Counted from the stretch's first letter, positions 15,463 to 25,808 are shown. The stretch: 64,000 bases of DNA from Candidatus Helarchaeota archaeon (GCA_019058315.1 JAHPZH010000009.1:32001-96000); one strand, 5' to 3'. Notes: generated by a model from the letters alone, not told the origin. Translations and numbers: made by a program.

Positions 15463-16665
15463 TTAAATTTTTAGTAGAAAATCTTTTAATTTTTCAAATC
15501 TTGCTTCCCAAGTGTTTTGCTGCAAAAATTTATCAATTTTTTCCGGTTCAATTTCAGCTGATAAACTGATGTCTATATTCTTTAGAAATTCTTCATAATT
15601 CTTTGAAATATAAACATATGGAAATCCTACCATTTCCCTTAGAAATATTGATACAACAGGTTTTCCTCCCGCAAGTGACTCGTAGATCTTAACGGGATGC
15701 CCTGAATCAGTTACTTGTTTTAATGAAACAAATGGGATTAGAGTTGTGTCGAAATAATGGATGTATTGAGGAAGATCTTCGTATTTTTTAGCTCCCAATA
15801 AGAAAAAATTTTCGTTATTACTTTTTATTTGTTTTAGTTTATCATTAAAAGCGGGATCAATATTCCCAATAAAAACAAAATTGTAATTTGGACGTTTCGA
15901 AATTACATAATCTAATAGTTTTGCATCTAAATGCTCAGCTATCAACCCAAAAAATCCTATAATGGGATTACCAGAAGGTAAATCAGGAGGTCTCGAACAC
16001 TTCTCTCTCGCTTTAATGAAATGATGAAATTCAGCCCCATTTGTTAAATAATACGTATTTTTATTGAATTTTAATGCCCTTTCTTGGAGATATTTAGCTG
16101 TCGCTAATACAAAATCGGAATTTTTTATTAAATATTCTTCTTTTGCTAAGATTTGAGTTGTGGGTGAATCCCAGTAAGATATATCATCTACGCTGTCATA
16201 AATAAGCTTAAATCCCATTTTCTTAAAAAATGGAATATATTCAACTAACAAAGGAAATTGATAAAGTACAACTTTTTTTTCAGAAGTTGAATATGTATTA
16301 AATTTTCTAATATACGCTTTTTGAACATCTTGAGTTTTTTCTTGATGAGTGGTCTTTAAAAAATTAAATATTCTTAAGATTTGTAGACGGCGTAAAATTC
16401 TTATAGCCAATGAATCAATTTTAGATTCTAAACGTGATCCTTTTTTTAAACGATTGAAGGGATTTAAGTCAAATTCGTAAGGATTATGCCATATTTCTAA
16501 ATTAGGAATTGTTCTTCCCTTTTCTTTTTCTTTATCAAAATGTACATTTGGAAAATTTACAAATAGGACCCTATTACCATCATTTGAAAATAATTCTGCA
16601 AAATGATGGATTCTGTTATAGGTAGAAACATTCCAAGGAATTGGGTTAATCAATATTACATCCAT
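15463..16665 (-). CDS. GT-B glycosyltransferase (GT4/TuaH-like)
   Basis: Motifs YDSVDD, NGAEF, IGFFG and PVKIYESLAGGKPVVS. Confidence 0.8.
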   Translation of the reverse strand: MDVILINPIPWNVSTYNRIHHFAELFSNDGNRVLFVNFPNVHFDKEKEKGRTIPNLEIWHNPYEFDLNPFNRLKKGSRLESKIDSLAIRILRRLQILRIFNFLKTTHQEKTQDVQKAYIRKFNTYSTSEKKVVLYQFPLLVEYIPFFKKMGFKLIYDSVDDISYWDSPTTQILAKEEYLIKNSDFVLATAKYLQERALKFNKNTYYLTNGAEFHHFIKAREKCSRPPDLPSGNPIIGFFGLIAEHLDAKLLDYVISKRPNYNFVFIGNIDPAFNDKLKQIKSNNENFFLLGAKKYEDLPQYIHYFDTTLIPFVSLKQVTDSGHPVKIYESLAGGKPVVSIFLREMVGFPYVYISKNYEEFLKNIDISLSAEIEPEKIDKFLQQNTWEARFEKLKDFLLKI

Positions 16666-16755
16666 AGTAAATTTTCCTCAATTCAATAAGTAACAACCTA
16701 ATTATTTATTTTGATATTTTATATTAACAAAATTCTAAAAATAACGCTTAAAAAT

Positions 16756-17877
16756 TTAGCTCATATTTCCAATAACCCATTTTAAAGAATATTTATACCT
16801 AGATTTTTCCCAAAGAATGCGTAAAACCCAAATCCCGCAATAGAAAGAAAAAGAAATTATATAATGGGAAAATAACGAAATCTTATTTGGTCCACCAAAA
16901 ATGGATAAAAGATACCATCCAAAATAAGCATGTAGAACAAGAATCGTTAGAGATATTTCTCCTAAAAAAGTAATTATGCTAAATATTTGGATTTCTTTAC
17001 CCTTAATATCTTGAATCCAATAAAAAAATATAAAAATTAAAAATACAATCCCTTGAGACCAAAAATTGTAGCCAGTATTCCCTACCATTTTATCAGCAGG
17101 AGTTAATGGATAAAGATTTGATAATATTTCTAAAATTAATCCTCCTATTATAAAGACAATTCCTAATATTATAAATTTCTTAAAAAATGAATTATCTTCT
17201 TGGTTAGTTGCATGTTTTAAAATTGATTTTCCCACCCATACTCCTACAATTACAAAAAATATGTGAGGAAATATCGGAAATCCAGGAGTTACTAAGACTC
17301 CTCTAATAAATGCAAAAATATCCCAAGGAGATTTATAACCAATGATAGTAAGATAATTGTAATCAAAATAGAGAGCGGAATCTGCTTGATAATCTAAAAG
17401 AACTCTTAAAATTGGGCTAAGAATAATGACGACAATGGCACATAACCAAATTGTTCTATCAGAGTATTTCTCAAGAAAATATGAAATTATTATTGAAATT
17501 CCTATTAAAGATAAAATCCCCCAAGCCCAGACTGATTGAAGACCAAATACAGTGGGACTTAATATAAAATGTAAAATTATAATCACTAATCCTCTTTTAA
17601 TAATATGGGATTTGATTTCTTCTTCAGATTCACCCTTGTTTCTTCTATTAGTTGTTGATAAAACTACACTAATCCCTACAATCATAAGAAAAATCGGAGC
17701 TCCAACAATACCTAAAAAATGAATAATCGTTATGGGCTCTAAAACTGACCGGATAACAAAAAGATTTGCAAAATGAAATATTAACATAATAAAGACTGCA
17801 AAACCTCTTAAAAAATCTATAGATTTAAGCCTTGGAATTTTTAACTTAGCTAGGATAATGTCATTTTTTTTTTGCAA
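16756..17877 (-). CDS. DUF1624/HGSNAT-like membrane acyltransferase, paralog E
   Basis: Motifs RLKSIDFLRG-x9-H, PIFLMIVG, IIKRG, FPIFP, SLTILVLH and KYSLKW. Confidence 0.8.
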   Translation of the reverse strand: MQKKNDIILAKLKIPRLKSIDFLRGFAVFIMLIFHFANLFVIRSVLEPITIIHFLGIVGAPIFLMIVGISVVLSTTNRRNKGESEEEIKSHIIKRGLVIIILHFILSPTVFGLQSVWAWGILSLIGISIIISYFLEKYSDRTIWLCAIVVIILSPILRVLLDYQADSALYFDYNYLTIIGYKSPWDIFAFIRGVLVTPGFPIFPHIFFVIVGVWVGKSILKHATNQEDNSFFKKFIILGIVFIIGGLILEILSNLYPLTPADKMVGNTGYNFWSQGIVFLIFIFFYWIQDIKGKEIQIFSIITFLGEISLTILVLHAYFGWYLLSIFGGPNKISLFSHYIISFSFYCGIWVLRILWEKSRYKYSLKWVIGNMS

Positions 17878-17932
17878 TCTATCTCACTTAATATTAGGCT
17901 ACCAATTTGATAATAAAATCAGATTATTAAAT

Positions 17933-19015
17933 TTAACTTAATTTTCTTAATAAATATTCTAAGCTTCCCTTAAATTTGATTTTACTCCAGTATGTGCCTA
18001 AAATTAAAAAAACCAAGATAAAAAATAGAAGAATTATATAGAATGAATATATTGATAGTTTTTGAACGCCACCACTCAAAAAAATCACACTATAACCAAA
18101 AACTACATGGATATAAAAGAGAGTTAAAGATAAACTACTTAATAATGTGAAGATACCAGAGGAGGGGACTTTATTAATATCTTGAATCCAATAAATTACT
18201 ATAAAAACCAAACCCCAAATACCAAAACTTTGAATTAAATGAATTCCTAGATCCCAAGGACCAAAATTCGGATTGAATCTTATTATAGTAGTTATAAAAA
18301 TTATAAAAATAAATGCTGTTAGTAACTTTATCAATAATTTTGATGACATTTCTCCATTTTTTGTATTTATAATATACTCTGCAAGTATAGATCCAAATAT
18401 AGCCATGGATGATTGTGGAATAATCGGACAAGTTCCATTAGATATCATACCCGCAATAAACCTATCCAAAGACCACGGTGCATTATATATAAGCAAAGTA
18501 TAATCTAGTTCGATATGGAGAATTATTCGCAAAGCTGGATAAAAAAACATCATTAAGCTTATAAGAATTAATCTCCATTTTATTGAAATTTTAGAAGTAT
18601 AATAAATTATAATCCCAGAAATTGCAATTGTTCCGATTTCGTCCCACCACCAGACATTTTTACCTGGTTCCCAATAAAAATAAACAAAATGAAGAAAAAA
18701 ATGAAAAAGAAGTAATAATAAACCACGTTTTATCACATGAGTTCGAATTTCTGATTCTGGAAAACCTTGTATTCTCCTTCTCTCAATTGCAATTCTTTGA
18801 CTCATTCCTGAGACCATAATAAAGATCGGCGCTGCAACCATTCCAAGATATGGTATATATGATAATAGAAATTCATGTCTCCAATATCCAAAAAACCATA
18901 ATGCACTGGCAGAAGTCCACCATGAGGCAAAATGAAACATTAAATAGAAAATAACACAAAGACCTCTTAACGTATCAATTGAATTAATTCTTTCCGTTTT
19001 TTCCAATTGAATCAC
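17933..19015 (-). CDS. DUF1624/HGSNAT-like membrane acyltransferase, paralog D
   Basis: Motifs RINSIDTLRG-x9-H, PIFIMVSG, VIKRG, SLTLFYIH and KGSLEY. Confidence 0.8.
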   Translation of the reverse strand: MIQLEKTERINSIDTLRGLCVIFYLMFHFASWWTSASALWFFGYWRHEFLLSYIPYLGMVAAPIFIMVSGMSQRIAIERRRIQGFPESEIRTHVIKRGLLLLLFHFFLHFVYFYWEPGKNVWWWDEIGTIAISGIIIYYTSKISIKWRLILISLMMFFYPALRIILHIELDYTLLIYNAPWSLDRFIAGMISNGTCPIIPQSSMAIFGSILAEYIINTKNGEMSSKLLIKLLTAFIFIIFITTIIRFNPNFGPWDLGIHLIQSFGIWGLVFIVIYWIQDINKVPSSGIFTLLSSLSLTLFYIHVVFGYSVIFLSGGVQKLSIYSFYIILLFFILVFLILGTYWSKIKFKGSLEYLLRKLS

Positions 19016-19037
19016 AAATTCCCCAATAAAAGGAATT

Positions 19038-20135
19038 TTAACTTAAAGTACCTAAAAGCCATTCAAGCGAATACTGAAAATTATTTCTTTTCCATAATTC
19101 ACCTAAAATATAAGTAAAAACAAAGAATAATAAAAAAATAATAAAAAATGAGTACATCCGTAGGATTTGTTCGCCTCCGACGACTTCAACAACAGCGACC
19201 ATAAAATATGCATGAATGAAAAATAAAGTTAAAGTTAATCTACCAACTAAATTAATAATATCTAGAACCACAAATTTCACCCGTTTCATATCTTCTAACC
19301 AATAAAAACCTGCTATTATAAAGCAATTCAGACCTATCACCCATATAATGTTACCAGTATTAAAAATATTTAAATCAGCTATTGTAAAAGTTGGGAATTT
19401 TATAATATCCATAATAAGGCCTAGGGGAAATAGAATTGCCCCAATTATCATCAATTTTTTTAATGCTTTGTTTATATTATTTTCTTTAATTCCCGTAATT
19501 AAATATTCACCTAAAATACTACCTGCAATTACAAATCCAATCCACGGAAATAATGCAAAGCCTGGTGCAATTAATGTTGCTTTTAGCCATTCAATAATTG
19601 TCCATGGGGCTGCAAATCCAACTCTACCAATAAAATCATTAACATCAATAAATAATAAACGTAAAAATGGAGAAACTCCAATAATAATTCCTGCTATTAT
19701 TCCTCGAGTTAATTTAGAATATCGCATTAGGAAACAATTTATAATTATTGAAAAACCTAATAATGAAAAAATCCCACTCGCCCATGAGGCAGCGAATCCA
19801 AATGCTCCTATATTCATTAGTTGGTTTAGAAATATTAAAATAAATCCTCGCTTAATAATGTGTTTAAGGCTCTCTTTTGAAGGTTCTCCTCTTAATTTTC
19901 TATTTTCTAATGATAAAGTTAAAGAAACTCCTGGGATTATTATAAACAATGGCAACCCGATAATATAAATTATTGACATATAATCCAATTGAGCTTTTAG
20001 AAAAGGGATAACCCAAAGGTTTGAAAAATGAATTTGGAGCATATTTATTAATTTAAGACCTCTTAGACTATCTAATGAATAGATACGAGGAATTCTAGTA
20101 ATTTTTTTTGTATTAATATCATTCAAGAATATCAC
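19038..20135 (-). CDS. DUF1624/HGSNAT-like membrane acyltransferase, paralog C
   Basis: Motifs RIYSLDSLRG-x9-H, PLFIIIPG, IIKRG, LFPW, TLTLFFIH and QYSLEW. Confidence 0.8.
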   Translation of the reverse strand: MIFLNDINTKKITRIPRIYSLDSLRGLKLINMLQIHFSNLWVIPFLKAQLDYMSIIYIIGLPLFIIIPGVSLTLSLENRKLRGEPSKESLKHIIKRGFILIFLNQLMNIGAFGFAASWASGIFSLLGFSIIINCFLMRYSKLTRGIIAGIIIGVSPFLRLLFIDVNDFIGRVGFAAPWTIIEWLKATLIAPGFALFPWIGFVIAGSILGEYLITGIKENNINKALKKLMIIGAILFPLGLIMDIIKFPTFTIADLNIFNTGNIIWVIGLNCFIIAGFYWLEDMKRVKFVVLDIINLVGRLTLTLFFIHAYFMVAVVEVVGGEQILRMYSFFIIFLLFFVFTYILGELWKRNNFQYSLEWLLGTLS

Positions 20136-20224
20136 TAGGGCATTTAAAAACTACAATTTTTCTATGAGATTAAATTAAATCGAAACAATTTATCAGAGAA
20201 TTATTAGAAAATAATGAGGAATAA

Positions 20225-21412
20225 TTAATCTTTCTTTGATTTAAGTGATTTATAAAGTTGTCTTTGGACAATGAATTTTTGAATATCTGTTGTTCCTCCA
20301 ACTACCCACATGACTGGTCCTGCTCTCCACATAGCAGCTGGAATATCGTATCTATGGGTTATAGCTTTCCCTGCAAGAGTCTGAACACAAGCATTACTTA
20401 CTTCTATATGCATTTCGCTAGCATTTGCAAATGCCATAGAGGCTGCAAGAGTTGCTTGTTCCATATCTCTTTGATCGAGATATTTTGCGGCTTCAAGAGT
20501 GAGCAATCTAGAGGCATGAACTTTAAGAGCTGAGTCTGCTATTCGAAAATTGACTGCTTGTTGTCTAGAGATGGGTAGTCCGAATTGGACTCTTTCATTT
20601 GAATATTTTAAGGCTATATCTAACGCTGTTTGGGCATTTCCTACACAAGATGCTGCCATTACTACTCTTTCAACATTTAATTCTGACATTAAAATTGGAA
20701 AACCCTGTCCTTCCTTACCTAAAAGATTTTCAACTGGAATGCGTAAATCTTCAAATTCAAGTCTACCACAACATGCCCCTTGAATACCCATTAATTCATA
20801 TTCTTCAGCGACTTTGAAACCTTTGGTTTTGGATTCCACAAGAAAACCTGTTATTTTTTTTCTTGGATCCTTTTCTTCAAGATGTTCAAGAATTCCAAAA
20901 ACAGCTAATATATCAGCTTTTGTACCATTCGCTATATATTTTTTATGCCCATTTATTATATATTCATCCCCTTCACGAATAATTTTTGTCTGCATACTCG
21001 ATAGATCTGAACCAGCTTCATCTTCAGTCATACAAATTGCTCCAATCCAATCTCCTGAGGTGATTTTAGGTAAATATTTTTCCTTTTGGCTTTCAGTTCC
21101 AAAAACGGAAAGGGGCATTCCAAAGAAAATTGTAGATACAGCACGTGTCATATTTACAGAAGCATCAATTTTACCACATTCTTCTGAAATAATACATTCT
21201 GCGACAATACCTTTTTCTGTACCACCATATTTTTTCTGATGTATGGCACCCAACAATCCTTTTTTAGCTAATTGCTTTAATGCTTTTCTCATTGCAGAAT
21301 AATCGCCCCTAAGAGCTGGTTCAACAAATTGCGGAATGTTTTCTTGAAGAAATGTTCTGGTTTCTTTTTGAAATTCAAGTTCCTCATCAGTATAAAAAAC
21401 GGATGTATTCAA
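20225..21412 (-). CDS. Acyl-CoA dehydrogenase (isovaleryl-CoA dehydrogenase-type catalytic layout)
   Basis: Motifs ICMTEDEAGSD, NGHKKYIANG, RVQFG, LNVER and GGTTDIQK. Confidence 0.9.
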   Translation of the reverse strand: MNTSVFYTDEELEFQKETRTFLQENIPQFVEPALRGDYSAMRKALKQLAKKGLLGAIHQKKYGGTEKGIVAECIISEECGKIDASVNMTRAVSTIFFGMPLSVFGTESQKEKYLPKITSGDWIGAICMTEDEAGSDLSSMQTKIIREGDEYIINGHKKYIANGTKADILAVFGILEHLEEKDPRKKITGFLVESKTKGFKVAEEYELMGIQGACCGRLEFEDLRIPVENLLGKEGQGFPILMSELNVERVVMAASCVGNAQTALDIALKYSNERVQFGLPISRQQAVNFRIADSALKVHASRLLTLEAAKYLDQRDMEQATLAASMAFANASEMHIEVSNACVQTLAGKAITHRYDIPAAMWRAGPVMWVVGGTTDIQKFIVQRQLYKSLKSKKD

Positions 21413-21476
21413 ATTATCAAAACCCTTTCAATAATCTTATTTTCTAATTGTATATTTTATAAAAAATATTTTTCTA

Positions 21477-22616
21477 TTAACCTCTTAAAAAATACTCAAG
21501 ACTATATTTATAGTTTTTATGCTTCCAAATTAATGTGATAATATAAATTAAAATAAATAAGCTTAATCCCATAACTGTGAACGGTAAAACATGGAAATAA
21601 TTATATAAATTAAGAGGAAGGAAAAAATATGCCGCAAATAGAAAGTGTGTTACAAATAAAGTTAAAGAAATGTTCCCAATTAACATTATTGGGTCAAAAA
21701 CTCTCCATTTTTTCTTTTTAATATCTTGAATATATAAAAGAACTGAAAAAAGAATTGCAAAATTACCAATTGAGAATAGATAATATATCCATTGATTAAA
21801 TATCCATGAATAGTCGTGATAGATTGGAATTATTATATTCAAAGACTTAATAATAAACCATAAATCATAATGTCCAGCAGCTAAAAGAAGAAAATTAATA
21901 AATACTGGATTATTTATATCTACAAAGTTGAAAACAATCCATAAATCAATTGGAAATGTCGCAACAAAAAGTAAAATCCCAAATATTATTAAATAACGTT
22001 GATATTGGCTAATCTTATTATTTCTGACTGCTTCTATCCAGTAACTTCCTAGTAATGTTCCAATTAACATATTTGCTAAAACATGAAATCCGATTCTTAC
22101 AGGCATATTTGCATCTATAATAATTAATATAAATCCTATAATTCCATAAGCAATTTTAGGTGGTTTTAAGACCATTAAATAAGCGTTTATTATATATGCA
22201 AACCCAATCATTGCCATTACATTCCAATCTAATATTAATAGGGGATTAATCGATAAAATAGAGATGTATGAGCCTAAATTCAAGAGGAAACTTATTGCGA
22301 TTATTATTAAACCTCTTTTTAATATATATTTTGATAGTTCTTTTATTGGAATTTCCTTTTCTAATCGTCTTTGAATAGCAAAACTTAAAGTAATTCCAAT
22401 AAGAATAACAAAAAATGGAAATCCATGATTCATAGAATAATTTGCAATCCAAAAATCAAAAATTCTACCAAGTTCAGATTCTTTATTATAAAACCAGTGA
22501 AAATAGTGACCAAAAACCATAAAGAATGTAGCAATTCCTCTAATAGTTTCAATAGACCTAACTCTTGGTAACTTTTGGGGTTTTTTCATAACTGCCAATT
22601 GAGTTTGTTCTCCCAT
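21477..22616 (-). CDS. DUF1624/HGSNAT-like membrane acyltransferase, paralog B
   Basis: Motifs RVRSIETIRG-x9-H, PFFVILIG, ILKRG, SLTLFVTH and KYSLEY. ATG 22616 follows GTGAT. Confidence 0.75.
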   Translation of the reverse strand: MGEQTQLAVMKKPQKLPRVRSIETIRGIATFFMVFGHYFHWFYNKESELGRIFDFWIANYSMNHGFPFFVILIGITLSFAIQRRLEKEIPIKELSKYILKRGLIIIAISFLLNLGSYISILSINPLLILDWNVMAMIGFAYIINAYLMVLKPPKIAYGIIGFILIIIDANMPVRIGFHVLANMLIGTLLGSYWIEAVRNNKISQYQRYLIIFGILLFVATFPIDLWIVFNFVDINNPVFINFLLLAAGHYDLWFIIKSLNIIIPIYHDYSWIFNQWIYYLFSIGNFAILFSVLLYIQDIKKKKWRVFDPIMLIGNISLTLFVTHFLFAAYFFLPLNLYNYFHVLPFTVMGLSLFILIYIITLIWKHKNYKYSLEYFLRG

Positions 22617-22632
22617 AATAATCACTTTGAGT

Positions 22633-23832
22633 TTAACTTAATTTTCGAATTGCCCATTCTAAACTATACTTAAATTTAAATTTGGACCAAAAAACGGTAA
22701 TAATCCAAAAGAAAATGGTAAAAACAATAGTTATTATCTGGAGTGAATAAGTTGAAATTAAATTTACAGGTTGCATAATAATTTGAAAGAAAAGTGTTCT
22801 GATCAACGGATTAGATATGAAATAAAAAATATCAAACATTTCGAAACTAGAGCGAAATATAGGACCAAAGAAATATCTTGCAAATAAGTGATGCGCTACG
22901 AAAATTGTGAAAGCTAGTGAGCTTAAAACTGATATTTGTTTTAAAATAATATTATTACGTTTTTTAACATCTTGAAACCAAAAAAATAATGCGAAGAAAG
23001 ATAGAAATACACCAGTAGAAAAAATTATATGAACTTCATGGTTAAAATCCAAAATTAAAGGCATAACTCCACCATATCTCAAATTAACATCAATTGCACA
23101 GCTGAATATACATAAAATTAGACCATAAATAAGGAAAGTTCTAGGGAGTGATTCTATTTTACCTTCTTTAATCTTATTTAGAGTAAAGCTACCAATAATG
23201 GTTCCAATTAAGACCATGTTTAATGAAAATGGATTCCAAAGATCATGTATAGTTATAGAAGAAAGCATAATGAATTCTATAAAAGTTGGATGCCAACTCC
23301 AAAATGGGAGAATGGATAAATGATAAATAATTCCTAAGAGTTGAGAGAGAGGATTGAGGATTAATAATATACTAGATATAATGATCCTATGTTTAATTGA
23401 AAGTTTTAAGGTGAAAAATGTTATTATAGTCGAGACTCCAATTAAAACAATTATATTCCAAATCCACCATCTAGAAAAACCTTCAATTAAAAGATTTAGA
23501 ATATATCCAAATCCCCAAAGGAAACCTCCTCTTCTTAAAACGGCGTTTTGAAGCTCTTTCTCAGTACTTCTTTTCTTTTTATTCTCAACATAAAATACCA
23601 AACTAAATCCTACACATATTAAAAAAATTGGAGCTCCAATAGGACCAAACCACATGCCAAAATAGTCCCACCAACCCCATGAAAGCTCATCACCATCTAA
23701 AAACCAAAGACCAAAGTGACCAAAAATCATAATTAAAATGGCAAGTGCCCGTAAAAGATCAATAGAATGAATTCTAGGAATTTTTTTGACCATTTCACTT
23801 TTATTTAATTTAGGTGTTGCTAAACTTTCCAT
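22633..23832 (-). CDS. DUF1624/HGSNAT-like membrane acyltransferase, paralog A
   Basis: Motifs RIHSIDLLRA-x9-H, APIFLICVG, VLRRG, AFTIFVAH and KYSLEW. Confidence 0.8.
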   Translation of the reverse strand: MESLATPKLNKSEMVKKIPRIHSIDLLRALAILIMIFGHFGLWFLDGDELSWGWWDYFGMWFGPIGAPIFLICVGFSLVFYVENKKKRSTEKELQNAVLRRGGFLWGFGYILNLLIEGFSRWWIWNIIVLIGVSTIITFFTLKLSIKHRIIISSILLILNPLSQLLGIIYHLSILPFWSWHPTFIEFIMLSSITIHDLWNPFSLNMVLIGTIIGSFTLNKIKEGKIESLPRTFLIYGLILCIFSCAIDVNLRYGGVMPLILDFNHEVHIIFSTGVFLSFFALFFWFQDVKKRNNIILKQISVLSSLAFTIFVAHHLFARYFFGPIFRSSFEMFDIFYFISNPLIRTLFFQIIMQPVNLISTYSLQIITIVFTIFFWIITVFWSKFKFKYSLEWAIRKLS

Positions 23833-24173
23833 AATTATCAAAACAATTGAGAATTTTTTAAATATTTAATTTTTTTTCATCTTGCTTTAAAGAAAATAAA
23901 TAGCTCAATAATGATTAAAATGCGTTAGTGCAAATATAATGTAAAAATAATTAGAAAATTAGAAATAATAAAATTTTTCCAAATTAAATAAAATATAATC
24001 AAAAAAATAAAGATATGGAAATAAAAGTACCAAATTTTTTCTTTTGTTCCACTTTTAAGGATAATAGGATAAATTTTTAAAAAAACTCTCTAAAAAATCA
24101 TTAATATTTAGTTTAAAGTCTTAAACAATTATAATGAATACTTTCTTCTTGAATTGTATATTAATGTGGTTAG

Positions 24174-25808
24174 ATGATTAAAAGAAGTACAAAAGGTCTT
24201 GAAAAAACAAGAGTATCTGAAAATAGCATCTTTGTTCTGTTACAAATTGCAATAACTGGCATATTAGGAATTTTTAACTCTATCCTTTTAGTTTGGGGAA
24301 TAAATAGTTACTATCCTTTTTTTGGAGGAGATATTTATGGTCGTTTGGGATATATACAGACTATAGTTTTGATCTTTACTCCTTTTTTATATGTAGGATT
24401 TTTACTTACTCTAACTAAAAGAATTGCTGAACATTATGCAATTAATGACGAATATAGTAAGCAAAAAGTAAAATATACCCTTAAATTTGCCTTTTTAACA
24501 ATAAGTATTGTTACCCTTACTTTTTATTTTATTTTTATTCTTTTAATCATGCCTTCCTCTTATCAGTTCGATTTATTTAATATAAACATGCCGTTTTTTT
24601 ATGCTTTATTTGGACTGGTGTGGATCTTAAACATTATATCCGTAATTTCAACAGGAGTTCTACAAGGGTTCCAAAAATATAGATTTGTAGCCTATAGTAG
24701 TTCCGCATCGGTATTGTTTATTACTTTATTATATCTATTATTAGCTCTTACAGTTAATCTTAATTTATTGACTGTAACAATCGTATTATTAATCTCTGAA
24801 TTGATAAAGGGGTTAATTGCCTTTGGATATATGATGTACTTATTAAAAAATTATGAAATTCTAGATGTTAAGATGAATTTATCCTCTCAACAGAAAAAAG
24901 AAGAAAGAACCGAACTCATGAAAGCTAATGTAATATTTATGTTATTAAATCTATTTTATATTTTTATTTTCTACTATGATAAAATTCTCATTTATATCTT
25001 CTTAAATTCATATACAGAATTAGCATATTATTTTATTGCTAACTATATTTTCACGTTTTTATTTCCTATCGCATGTGCAATTTTCAATGCACTTCTTCCA
25101 GCCTCTTCAGAGCAAAATATTCTAAAAAATAAAGAAAATCTTGTTAAATATATAAATTTAGGCTCAAAATATGCGTTATACATTTCAGTTATACTAGCAA
25201 TTTTTATGGCTACTGTAATAAGTGAGGTAATGCCAATTGTATATGGAGAATTTGGCAAAGAATCGCTTGAATATTTACCATTCTTTGCTATAGTATTAAT
25301 ATTTGAAACTTTATTCTCCCCTTTAGGTAATGTCTTAATAGGTATTAAATTGAGAGATTACGCTTTAATTTATGGTCTTAGGGCGCTGTTAAATATTTTT
25401 CTGTGGCCTCTAATGTTCTCGATCTTTCAAAATATTATTGGAATATTAGTTGGAAGCATTATAAGTTCCTTTTTCTGGTATTTGACATGTGTAATTTATT
25501 TACGTGAATATATTAATATGAAAAATCTAATCAAACTAATTCCAAAAGTACTTTTACCAAGTAGTATAATAATTGGAAGTTATCTAGTACTATATTGGGT
25601 CAATTTCTTTTCAAGTACAACATTTATAATTTTCTTTCTAAAAATTAGCGTATTTTCTGTATTTATTGGAGGAATATACATATTATTGATTGCCTTGTTG
25701 AAAGGTTTTAGTCCTGAAGATCTTAATATACTTGAAAAAGGAATATATTGGATTCCTGGCTCACGACGGCTATTATCTATTTTAAGAAAAGTTAGTAGAC
25801 ATGTTTAA
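24174..25808 (+). CDS. Oligosaccharide flippase (Wzx/MOP superfamily)
   Basis: About 14 TM segments with YG, GVLQGFQ, DKILI, LAYY and ALLPASSE motifs. Confidence 0.8.
   Translation: MIKRSTKGLEKTRVSENSIFVLLQIAITGILGIFNSILLVWGINSYYPFFGGDIYGRLGYIQTIVLIFTPFLYVGFLLTLTKRIAEHYAINDEYSKQKVKYTLKFAFLTISIVTLTFYFIFILLIMPSSYQFDLFNINMPFFYALFGLVWILNIISVISTGVLQGFQKYRFVAYSSSASVLFITLLYLLLALTVNLNLLTVTIVLLISELIKGLIAFGYMMYLLKNYEILDVKMNLSSQQKKEERTELMKANVIFMLLNLFYIFIFYYDKILIYIFLNSYTELAYYFIANYIFTFLFPIACAIFNALLPASSEQNILKNKENLVKYINLGSKYALYISVILAIFMATVISEVMPIVYGEFGKESLEYLPFFAIVLIFETLFSPLGNVLIGIKLRDYALIYGLRALLNIFLWPLMFSIFQNIIGILVGSIISSFFWYLTCVIYLREYINMKNLIKLIPKVLLPSSIIIGSYLVLYWVNFFSSTTFIIFFLKISVFSVFIGGIYILLIALLKGFSPEDLNILEKGIYWIPGSRRLLSILRKVSRHV

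Follow-up and report, generated by a model that had tools for sequence, protein, structure and literature searches.

Five anciently diverged membrane acyltransferase genes, with a gene for an acyl-CoA dehydrogenase (ACAD) lying among them, form a tight co-oriented run in the genome of an Asgard archaeon. The run occupies positions 15463-23841, minus strand, of a 64,000-nucleotide stretch of Candidatus Helarchaeota archaeon DNA (hereafter the window; positions 32001-96000 of contig C10 in assembly G000). It comprises seven open reading frames (ORFs) in the order AT-AT-ACAD-AT-AT-AT followed by a glycosyltransferase (GT) gene, where AT denotes an acyltransferase gene, numbered AT1 to AT5 in transcription order, and the intergenic gaps from AT1 through the GT measure 7, 64, 89, 22, 55 and 90 nt. 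This is the layout described in an original prediction made from the sequence alone, which spoke of six co-oriented genes with gaps under 100 nt and a GT behind them, and it was recovered in the ORF listing. The identical six genes occur in the same order in three other assemblies, and the arrangement is therefore not a product of chance. The host is a Helarchaeales-like Asgard archaeon with a genome of 5.8 Mb in 12 contigs (G+C ~28%, completeness 94%, contamination 6.6%); its nearest proteins in databases carry the labels Helarchaeota, Hodarchaeota or Promethearchaeota. We give roughly even chances to the explanation that the run serves to decorate the product of a large locus for surface-glycan biosynthesis, with the ACAD acting as a donor-tailoring accessory to the acyltransferases.

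The acyltransferases are readily recognized as a family. The motifs previously singled out, R-x-x-S-[IL]-[DE]-x-x-R, R-x10-H, P-x-F-x4-G, [KR]RG, T-x4-H and SL[EK][WY], are invariant in an alignment of all five ATs (invariant columns R23, S26, R31, H42, P71, F73, G78, R104, G105, T312, H317, S393 and L394, with R31 and H42 in AT1 numbering), and pairwise identity among the five is 29-32%. At the Pfam gathering cut-offs of 22 bits for HGSNAT_cat (PF07786) and 31 bits for Acyl_transf_3 (PF01757), AT1, AT3, AT4 and AT5 pass the former with 36-73 bits and AT2 has no match to it, and AT5 alone passes the latter, with AT1, AT2 and AT4 at 25-28 bits and AT3 without a match. Membership in DUF418, also proposed earlier, found no backing in Pfam at E<=0.01. 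AT2 is the most diverged copy; it carries a long extra external segment and reads ExxR instead of DxxR, and it retains R-x10-H, FxxxxG, R-G and T-x4-H. The family to which the five belong is large, as a search of 1.8 billion proteins with a profile built from them matched 6135 representative clusters at E<=1e-3.

An AlphaFold2 model, computed for AT5 alone from an alignment of 102 relatives, reached a pLDDT of 90.6 and a pTM of 0.91 and displays ten long helices, the ninth of which is bent. When this model was compared with the PDB by Foldseek, all 15 matches at E<=0.001 were to human HGSNAT (TM 0.57-0.65, probability 1.0), the next match was yeast GWT1 (E 0.02-0.12), and nothing further exceeded a TM-score of 0.25; HGSNAT and GWT1 are the two solved members of the transmembrane acyltransferase (TmAT) superfamily (Pfam clan CL0316). 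Between the Pfam matches, the AT5 model and HGSNAT as its top structural match, the HGSNAT/DUF1624-type assignment of the original prediction stands. The conserved acyl-CoA site of TmATs consists of DxxR in the first transmembrane helix (TMH1), FxxxxG in TMH2, an Arg in TMH3 and a Gly in TMH6 (Kinniment-Williams et al., PMC12423673). All of these residues are present in the five ATs with the sole exception of the ExxR of AT2, and in 102 family members they are 93-100% conserved overall (D 101, R 96 plus 6 K, F 102, G 97, TMH3 R 98 plus 4 K, TMH6 G 99). The His of the TMH1 DxxR-x10-H motif is likewise invariant in the five ATs (R31/H42 of AT1) and present in 101 of 102 relatives. Paralogs devoid of an acyl-CoA channel, which had been named as a finding that would speak against the idea, were not encountered, the pore residues being conserved in all five. 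To judge from these residues and from the model, the ATs are acyl-CoA-dependent transmembrane acyltransferases predicted to possess an intact acyl-CoA pore or channel; as a class, they are stand-alone TmAT enzymes lying between the Pfam definitions of HGSNAT_cat and AT3.

In the ATs, TMH3 reads [KR]-R-G and the second Arg at +3 is absent, so that the RxxR motif is incomplete. The position of the HGSNAT-type TMH1 Asn is occupied by His, and the AT N-termini start ~15-20 residues ahead of TMH1. The TMH9 Tyr column (S-x3-Y) holds Phe in four array copies and Leu in AT5; Phe is a conservative substitution for Tyr at this position and Leu is not (PMC12423673). Substitution of this Tyr as a sign of a special donor was considered and rejected, as Phe or Leu is found in 44 of 102 family members (Y 56, F 26, L 18).

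The ATs are old and maintained, as had been proposed. Every array gene has 1:1 orthologs in related assemblies at 57-90% identity (72-90% for AT3, the best conserved copy), compared with ~30% between paralogs, and omega, calculated by the Nei-Gojobori method from ortholog pairs among related loci, is 0.09-0.27 for the ATs (AT2 0.17-0.25, AT3 0.09-0.13, AT4 0.16-0.27) and 0.09-0.15 for the ACAD, with similar values for the flanking GT, flippase and methyltransferase genes. All six genes are thus under purifying selection, and no relaxation of the kind envisaged earlier as a possible objection is evident. The host genome carries 15 TmAT paralogs, compared with 1-7 in relatives of the same class, and 14 of these 15 fall in one well-supported clade together with metagenomic relatives; within it the five array ATs are interleaved with dispersed copies, with no recent tandem burst. 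Copies lie on contigs C3, C5, C9 and C11, among them two further tandem pairs (e.g. C9:151986-154315 and C9:114310-116719). The array varies in places. AT1, for which orthologs were found in loci L020-L023, L027 and L028, is 65% identical to its L020/L021 counterparts (dS ~1.15), compared with 84-90% for neighbouring genes (dS ~0.5, spanning ~0.25-0.7), and groups with the alleles of L027/L028, two loci that have no ACAD; this suggests allele exchange or recombination within the locus. AT copy number also differs between lineages, being five in L027 and four in L028, where no AT4 ortholog was called and the distance from AT3 to AT5 is 218 nt (L028:11089-11307).

The inserted gene encodes what its sequence identifies as a genuine short-chain-like acyl-CoA dehydrogenase. 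Its N-terminal, middle and C-terminal Pfam domains score 84.4, 73.7 and 111.5 bits (E 1e-20 to 5e-32), 80 ACAD sequences in the PDB match it at E<=1e-20, and the top matches are bacterial butyryl/short-chain ACADs (E 3e-64) and isovaleryl-CoA dehydrogenases (IVDs; E 1e-57); among NCBIfam equivalogs none reached its cut-off. The canonical C-terminal catalytic Glu (E376 of medium-chain acyl-CoA dehydrogenase, MCAD) is replaced: the segment reads VVGGT, compared with IYEGT in four of the five best PDB matches and IYTGT in the fifth, 7p98. For the helix-G segment, the best PDB match is the MCAD E376G/T255E double mutant 1EGC, with E248-R249 of the ACAD aligned to E255-R256. The helix-G bases of IVD (E254) and long-chain acyl-CoA dehydrogenase (LCAD; E261) occupy the position of MCAD T255E, and E248 is accordingly the predicted catalytic Glu, of IVD/LCAD type. 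The array enzyme shares with IVD, LCAD and 1EGC a Glu directly before the conserved helix-G Arg and a Gly at the usual C-terminal Glu position; it differs from IVD and LCAD in that it is, overall, slightly closer to bacterial butyryl/short-chain ACADs than to IVDs. A nitrososynthase-type sugar oxidase with the ACAD fold (KijD3/ORF36-like) was considered and rejected, since no such enzyme is among the best 60 PDB matches, all of them acyl-CoA or acyl-carrier dehydrogenases, and the helix-G Glu is present. A dehydrogenase dependent on acyl-carrier protein was also considered; no carrier-protein gene is found among the Pfam-scanned genes of the locus, though no search aimed at carrier proteins was made.

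The helix-G base is typical of an entire Asgard ACAD subfamily and not special to the array copy, since E248-R249 is kept in 24 of 24 subfamily members checked, down to 39% identity. Specific to the array clade are changes beside the base, ER-[VA]-[VI]-M versus ER-x-G-M in the remaining subfamily, and WRAGP versus WRM[AGS][PN] elsewhere. The four array ACADs form a clade with 100% support, and its sister clade (99% support) includes a second copy from the host genome at C3:1382070. Because this sister paralog is kept elsewhere in the same genome, the array ACAD is a retained duplicate within an Asgard-specific subfamily and not the sole gene of its kind; in all, the genome has 15 ACAD-domain genes in varied contexts. 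The sister paralog (C3:1382070-1383257) is followed by a gene for a ~380-residue multi-4Fe-4S protein, and in its relatives in L029 and L032 a flavodoxin-like (FMN_red) gene and a DUF7379 gene precede the ACAD. Such Fe-S and flavodoxin-like neighbours may constitute a dedicated electron-acceptor set of the ACAD subfamily. The sole electron-transfer flavoprotein (ETF) alpha/beta pair of the genome is encoded at C3:398344-401066, where it immediately follows a further ACAD gene in a layout like that of Bcd-EtfBA. On Helarchaeales-like contigs (L024:8001-10901, L025:8001-11873, L013, L014 and L017), subfamily ACADs 52-67% identical to the array copy are followed by a convergent gene for a 157-residue GNAT acetyltransferase and by one or two genes for Arf-like small GTPases; this is a second setting in which an ACAD of this type neighbours a transferase that uses acyl-CoA.

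How firmly the ACAD belongs with the acyltransferases can be gauged from related loci. In a search of 5.8 billion proteins, the three closest ACADs (88%, 87% and 73% identity) all lie inside an AT-AT-ACAD-AT-AT-AT(-GT) run, and the order through the GT is kept in L020, L021 and L022/L023 at dS values of up to 1.2-1.8; each of the four array-clade ACADs found is located between AT2 and AT3. The L027/L028 loci share with the window a syntenic region of ~21 kb, in the order Epimerase_2, GT2, GT4, GT4, GT2, flippase, ATs, GT, methyltransferase, DUF1616, DUF362, epimerase and hexapeptide transferase. The history of the insert can be read in two ways. The three lineage groups are about equidistant (63-78% identity in flanking genes), and paralog-rooted AT trees conflict, with AT2 and AT4 placing L027/L028 inside the ACAD-bearing lineages and AT3 placing them outside. 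The samples that yielded L022 and L027 also yielded ACADs of the housekeeping clade (the same sample need not mean the same genome), which hints at a duplication predating all three groups, i.e. at ACAD loss in L027/L028. The tight AT2-AT3 junction of the ACAD-less loci is better fitted by insertion of the ACAD than by its loss.

In the explanation favoured here, each of the five TmATs, with their common 10-helix HGSNAT/AT3 fold, would bind cytoplasmic acyl-CoA in a transmembrane pore and deliver its acyl group to a sugar exposed on the outer side of the membrane; the positions acylated, or the acceptors, probably differ between paralogs. The array dehydrogenase, a duplicate whose helix-G Glu provides an arrangement that in IVD and LCAD suits branched or bulky short acyl-CoAs, lies as a putative cassette between AT2 and AT3 in one lineage group and is kept there by purifying selection. 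As an optional donor-tailoring enzyme it might turn a short or branched acyl-CoA into its 2-enoyl derivative, or alter the acyl-CoA pool available locally, in the service of one or more ATs, giving rise to variant glycan decoration in the ACAD-bearing lineages. We infer the glycan as acceptor, the paralog-specific positions and any coupling between the ACAD and the ATs. In favour of coupling, the ACAD lies on the same strand as the ATs, 64 and 89 nt from its neighbours, and the host genome encodes an ETF pair at another site. CarE, Asm19 and CmmA, moreover, are AT3-family enzymes that take isovaleryl-, isobutyryl-, butyryl- or propionyl-CoA as donor (PMC9558356). A bolder version of this idea, which we regard as tentative and rather doubtful, is that the array ACAD makes an alpha,beta-unsaturated or branched short acyl-CoA (for instance crotonyl-, methacrylyl-, tiglyl- or 3-methylcrotonyl-CoA) that one or more of the flanking TmATs thread through the membrane onto a cell-surface glycan, with presence or absence of the ACAD serving as a surface-variation switch, e.g. 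against viruses.

Several observations weigh against a dedicated coupling of this sort. The AT3 orthologs of L027 (76% identity) and L028 (72%) reside in the shared syntenic locus without an ACAD, and the ATs of these two loci show omega values of 0.07-0.13 at a dS of ~1 between them. As the ACAD-less ATs are strongly constrained, the ATs do not depend on an ACAD in cis, and the ACAD-less state, on this evidence, is also old and functional. Apart from AT4 in L028, the two locus types differ in gene content by the ACAD alone, and no ligase, carrier protein or ETF co-varies with it between them; nor was an array-clade ACAD from the L027/L028 assemblies found in the 5.8-billion-protein search. 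Among the matches listed for 40 class-level genomes (~150 ACAD, ~130 AT) there was no shared ACAD/AT neighbourhood, and none of the nine other AT loci of the host genome is near an ACAD. The ACAD-AT linkage is real but stems from one evolutionary event, without independent recurrence among these matches, and the ACAD is an optional, lineage-restricted insert, not a core component of the array. The dedicated ACAD-AT module that the original prediction proposed survives in part: the three closest lineages keep the ACAD in the array, where it forms its own paralog clade, but the L027/L028 arrays do without it, and the co-occurrence on which the proposal was to be checked holds in L020, L021 and L022/L023 but was found neither in the 40 relatives at class level nor at the host's nine further AT loci. 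Further points bear on donor, acceptor and transcription. No TmAT or AT3 enzyme is known to us to use a 2-enoyl-CoA as its donor, and literature searches on such donors returned nothing. Most of the other ten host TmAT paralogs lie outside obvious glycan loci, so that a glycan acceptor is unproven. Finally, the longer A/T-rich spacers around the ACAD and a T run ahead of it mean that the gene may be transcribed separately.

Much of this would be accommodated if the ACAD were a passenger, that is, a duplicated catabolic gene that fell between AT2 and AT3, stayed by descent and serves general acyl-CoA metabolism with ETF or Fe-S acceptors, and if the ATs were ordinary acetyl-CoA-dependent glycan O- or N-acetyltransferases. 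We assign this scenario an appreciable probability, short of even. Arrays without the ACAD are equally old and equally constrained, the linkage arose once and did not recur in the 40 relatives searched, and ACAD-domain genes abound in this genome in varied contexts. The remaining subfamily members, at <=67% identity, adjoin genes for GNATs and Arf-like GTPases or for flavodoxin-like or Fe-S proteins, never TmATs; three class-level genomes with the subfamily lack any AT match at E<=1e-20. The spacers also fit a passenger, and purifying selection attests to a working ACAD, not to its partners. Yet unrelated genes are generally rare inside tight co-oriented glycan clusters, and all four array-clade members found in the 5.8-billion-protein search sit at the same site between AT2 and AT3. 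The retention of the sister paralog elsewhere indicates that the array copy is not simply the housekeeping gene, and the array clade has its own changes beside the catalytic Glu.

It also is conceivable, although improbable in our estimate, that the TmATs act on a different acceptor altogether, for example a small molecule, a membrane lipid or the glycan of an S-layer protein produced at another site, or that they are acyl-CoA-dependent enzymes of scavenging or recycling in the manner of lysosomal HGSNAT, with the ACAD having a lipid-related role. Only 1 of the 10 non-array paralogs lies near GT or epimerase genes, as judged by BLAST against the glycan genes of the window, the large family is mostly uncharacterised, and HGSNAT, to which the model is structurally closest, takes part in the breakdown of glycans. 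Set against these considerations, the ATs have a Wzx-like flippase and glycosyltransferases on either side, in a gene order conserved in six assemblies, and stand-alone AT3 proteins encoded in bacterial polysaccharide loci act as glycan acylases, examples being Oac/OacB, ExoZ/ExoH and the xanthan O-acetyltransferases (PMC9558356 and PMC12423673).

Comparison with characterized systems places the donor-tailoring explanation in context. Human HGSNAT (PDB 8JKV, 8VKJ and others; DUF1624, PF07786) represents the Pfam family that fits four of the five ATs best, superimposes on the AT5 model with a TM of ~0.6, and shares with the ATs a TmAT core of ten helices as well as the pore residues DxxR, FxxxxG, TMH3-Arg and TMH6-Gly. 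It differs in that the ATs are 360-402 residues long and have no extra N-terminal luminal part, whereas solved HGSNAT chains run to ~500-550 residues; in that HGSNAT has a functionally important TMH1 Asn where the ATs have the AT3-type His of R-x10-H; in sequence, identity with the ATs being 16-20%; and in that it N-acetylates heparan sulfate in degradation, not biosynthesis. The bacterial stand-alone AT3 proteins (Oac/OacB, ExoZ/ExoH, IcaC and OpgC; PF01757) are closer in setting: as described in PMC9558356 and PMC12423673, they are membrane-only and encoded in glycan loci, sometimes with more than one per locus, carry DxxR-x10-H in TMH1 and S-x3-[YF] in a bent TMH9, and move acyl groups from cytoplasmic acyl-CoA to an external sugar. 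The ATs depart from them in that AT5 alone reaches the PF01757 cut-off, in the reduction of the TMH3 RxxR to a single Arg and in the TMH9 replacements (four Phe, one Leu). CarE/AcyB1 (isovaleryl), Asm19 and CmmA show that the superfamily can thread the substrate class of short-chain/IVD-type ACADs, namely isovaleryl-, isobutyryl-, butyryl- and propionyl-CoA, but these are actinomycete enzymes acting on antibiotic sugars or aglycones, and the available part of the source mentions neither an ACAD supply gene nor an enoyl-CoA donor for them (PMC9558356).

Asgard archaea are the closest known relatives of eukaryotes, and limited literature searches returned nothing on how their surface glycans are decorated; searches on ACADs in polysaccharide or O-antigen clusters and on Helarchaeales glycosylation likewise yielded nothing relevant. 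Tandem stand-alone TmAT/AT3 genes in polysaccharide loci are already known, and in the literature searched no description was found of a five-TmAT run with an ACAD inside in an Asgard archaeon. The sibling lineages offer a natural comparison, having the same ~21 kb glycan locus with or without the ACAD and with four or five TmATs. Should the ACAD tailor the donor, the known chemistry of the HGSNAT/AT3 superfamily, which counts human HGSNAT, CASD1 and PIG-W among its members, would be extended and a new route to cell-surface diversification revealed. If the donor is in fact unsaturated or branched, the ACAD would be the first enzyme seen to tailor the donor of a TmAT/AT3 system and would equip an Asgard surface with a non-acetyl, possibly reactive decoration. 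If the ACAD does not tailor the donor, the locus still represents a clear lineage-specific TmAT radiation, with 15 copies in one archaeal genome.

Coordinates of the array genes, the spacers around the ACAD gene and the divergent flippase gene, in window positions.
Feature	Position	Strand	Remarks
AT1, TmAT-superfamily membrane acyltransferase, 402 aa	22633..23841	-	HGSNAT_cat 46.8 bits; all motifs
AT2, TmAT-superfamily membrane acyltransferase, 382 aa	21477..22625	-	Acyl_transf_3 25.4 bits, below cut-off
AT2-ACAD spacer	21413..21476	-	T6 run, A/T-rich TATA-like stretch, then conserved GAAAGGG...TTGATAATTTG start region
Acyl-CoA dehydrogenase (ACAD), 395 aa, P0001	20225..21412	-	three Pfam ACAD domains
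ACAD-AT3 spacer, A/T-rich, weakly conserved	20136..20224	-	89 nt in the window vs 203 nt in L022
AT3, TmAT acyltransferase, 365 aa, best conserved copy	19038..20135	-	HGSNAT_cat 48.8 bits
AT4, TmAT acyltransferase, 360 aa	17933..19015	-	HGSNAT_cat 36.5 bits
AT5, TmAT acyltransferase, 373 aa, modelled copy	16756..17877	-	HGSNAT_cat 72.6 bits; Acyl_transf_3 41.1 bits
GT4/TuaH-like glycosyltransferase, final gene of the co-oriented run	15463..16665	-	Pfam Glycos_transf_1 26.1 bits, slightly below cut-off; NCBIfam TuaH-like E 4e-23
Wzx-like flippase (Polysacc_synt)	24174..25808	+	Pfam 37.4 bits; divergent from AT1, with a 332-nt A/T-rich spacer between

The surroundings are those of a glycan locus. 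By Pfam, a glycan island of ~40 kb (~1-41 kb of the window) contains GT1, GT2 and GT4 genes and two Wzx-like flippases, as well as genes for a UDP-GlcNAc 2-epimerase, an NDP-sugar dehydratase/epimerase, a hexapeptide acyltransferase, a methyltransferase and a large DUF1616-like membrane protein. The tabulated flippase is syntenic across all related loci, and synteny of the GT that closes the run is retained in L022, L027 and L028. Within AT1, whose minus-strand ORF begins at 23841, an internal ATG at 23832, three codons in and the boundary given in the original prediction, is a possible true start.

The spacers flanking the ACAD have features of their own. A T6-T8 run follows the AT2 stop in 4 of 4 ACAD-bearing loci; in the ACAD-less loci the AT2-AT3 distance is ~28-40 nt and there is no T run. 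This pattern suggests a cassette that may carry its own signals. A sigma-70 promoter scan returned fewer sites than did shuffled sequences, the sigma-70 model not being applicable to archaea. Among the sequencing runs listed as containing the 7 kb stretch there was no RNA run, all being DNA from sediment, one of them probably the source. The start region of the ACAD, TTGATAATTTG (21412-21422), is conserved in 4 of 4 ACAD-bearing loci and is similar to the starts of AT1 and AT2, TTG/GTG-ATA/ATT-ATT-ATG (M-I-I-M); translation from its first TTG gives a three-codon M-I-I-stop frame overlapping the ACAD start codon. The resemblance could reflect chance in A/T-rich DNA or a trace of cassette joining. 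Two plus-strand ORFs, at 19348-19968 (206 aa, inside AT3) and 20814-21239 (141 aa, inside the ACAD), run antisense to the array genes and are most likely spurious products of the A/T-rich DNA.

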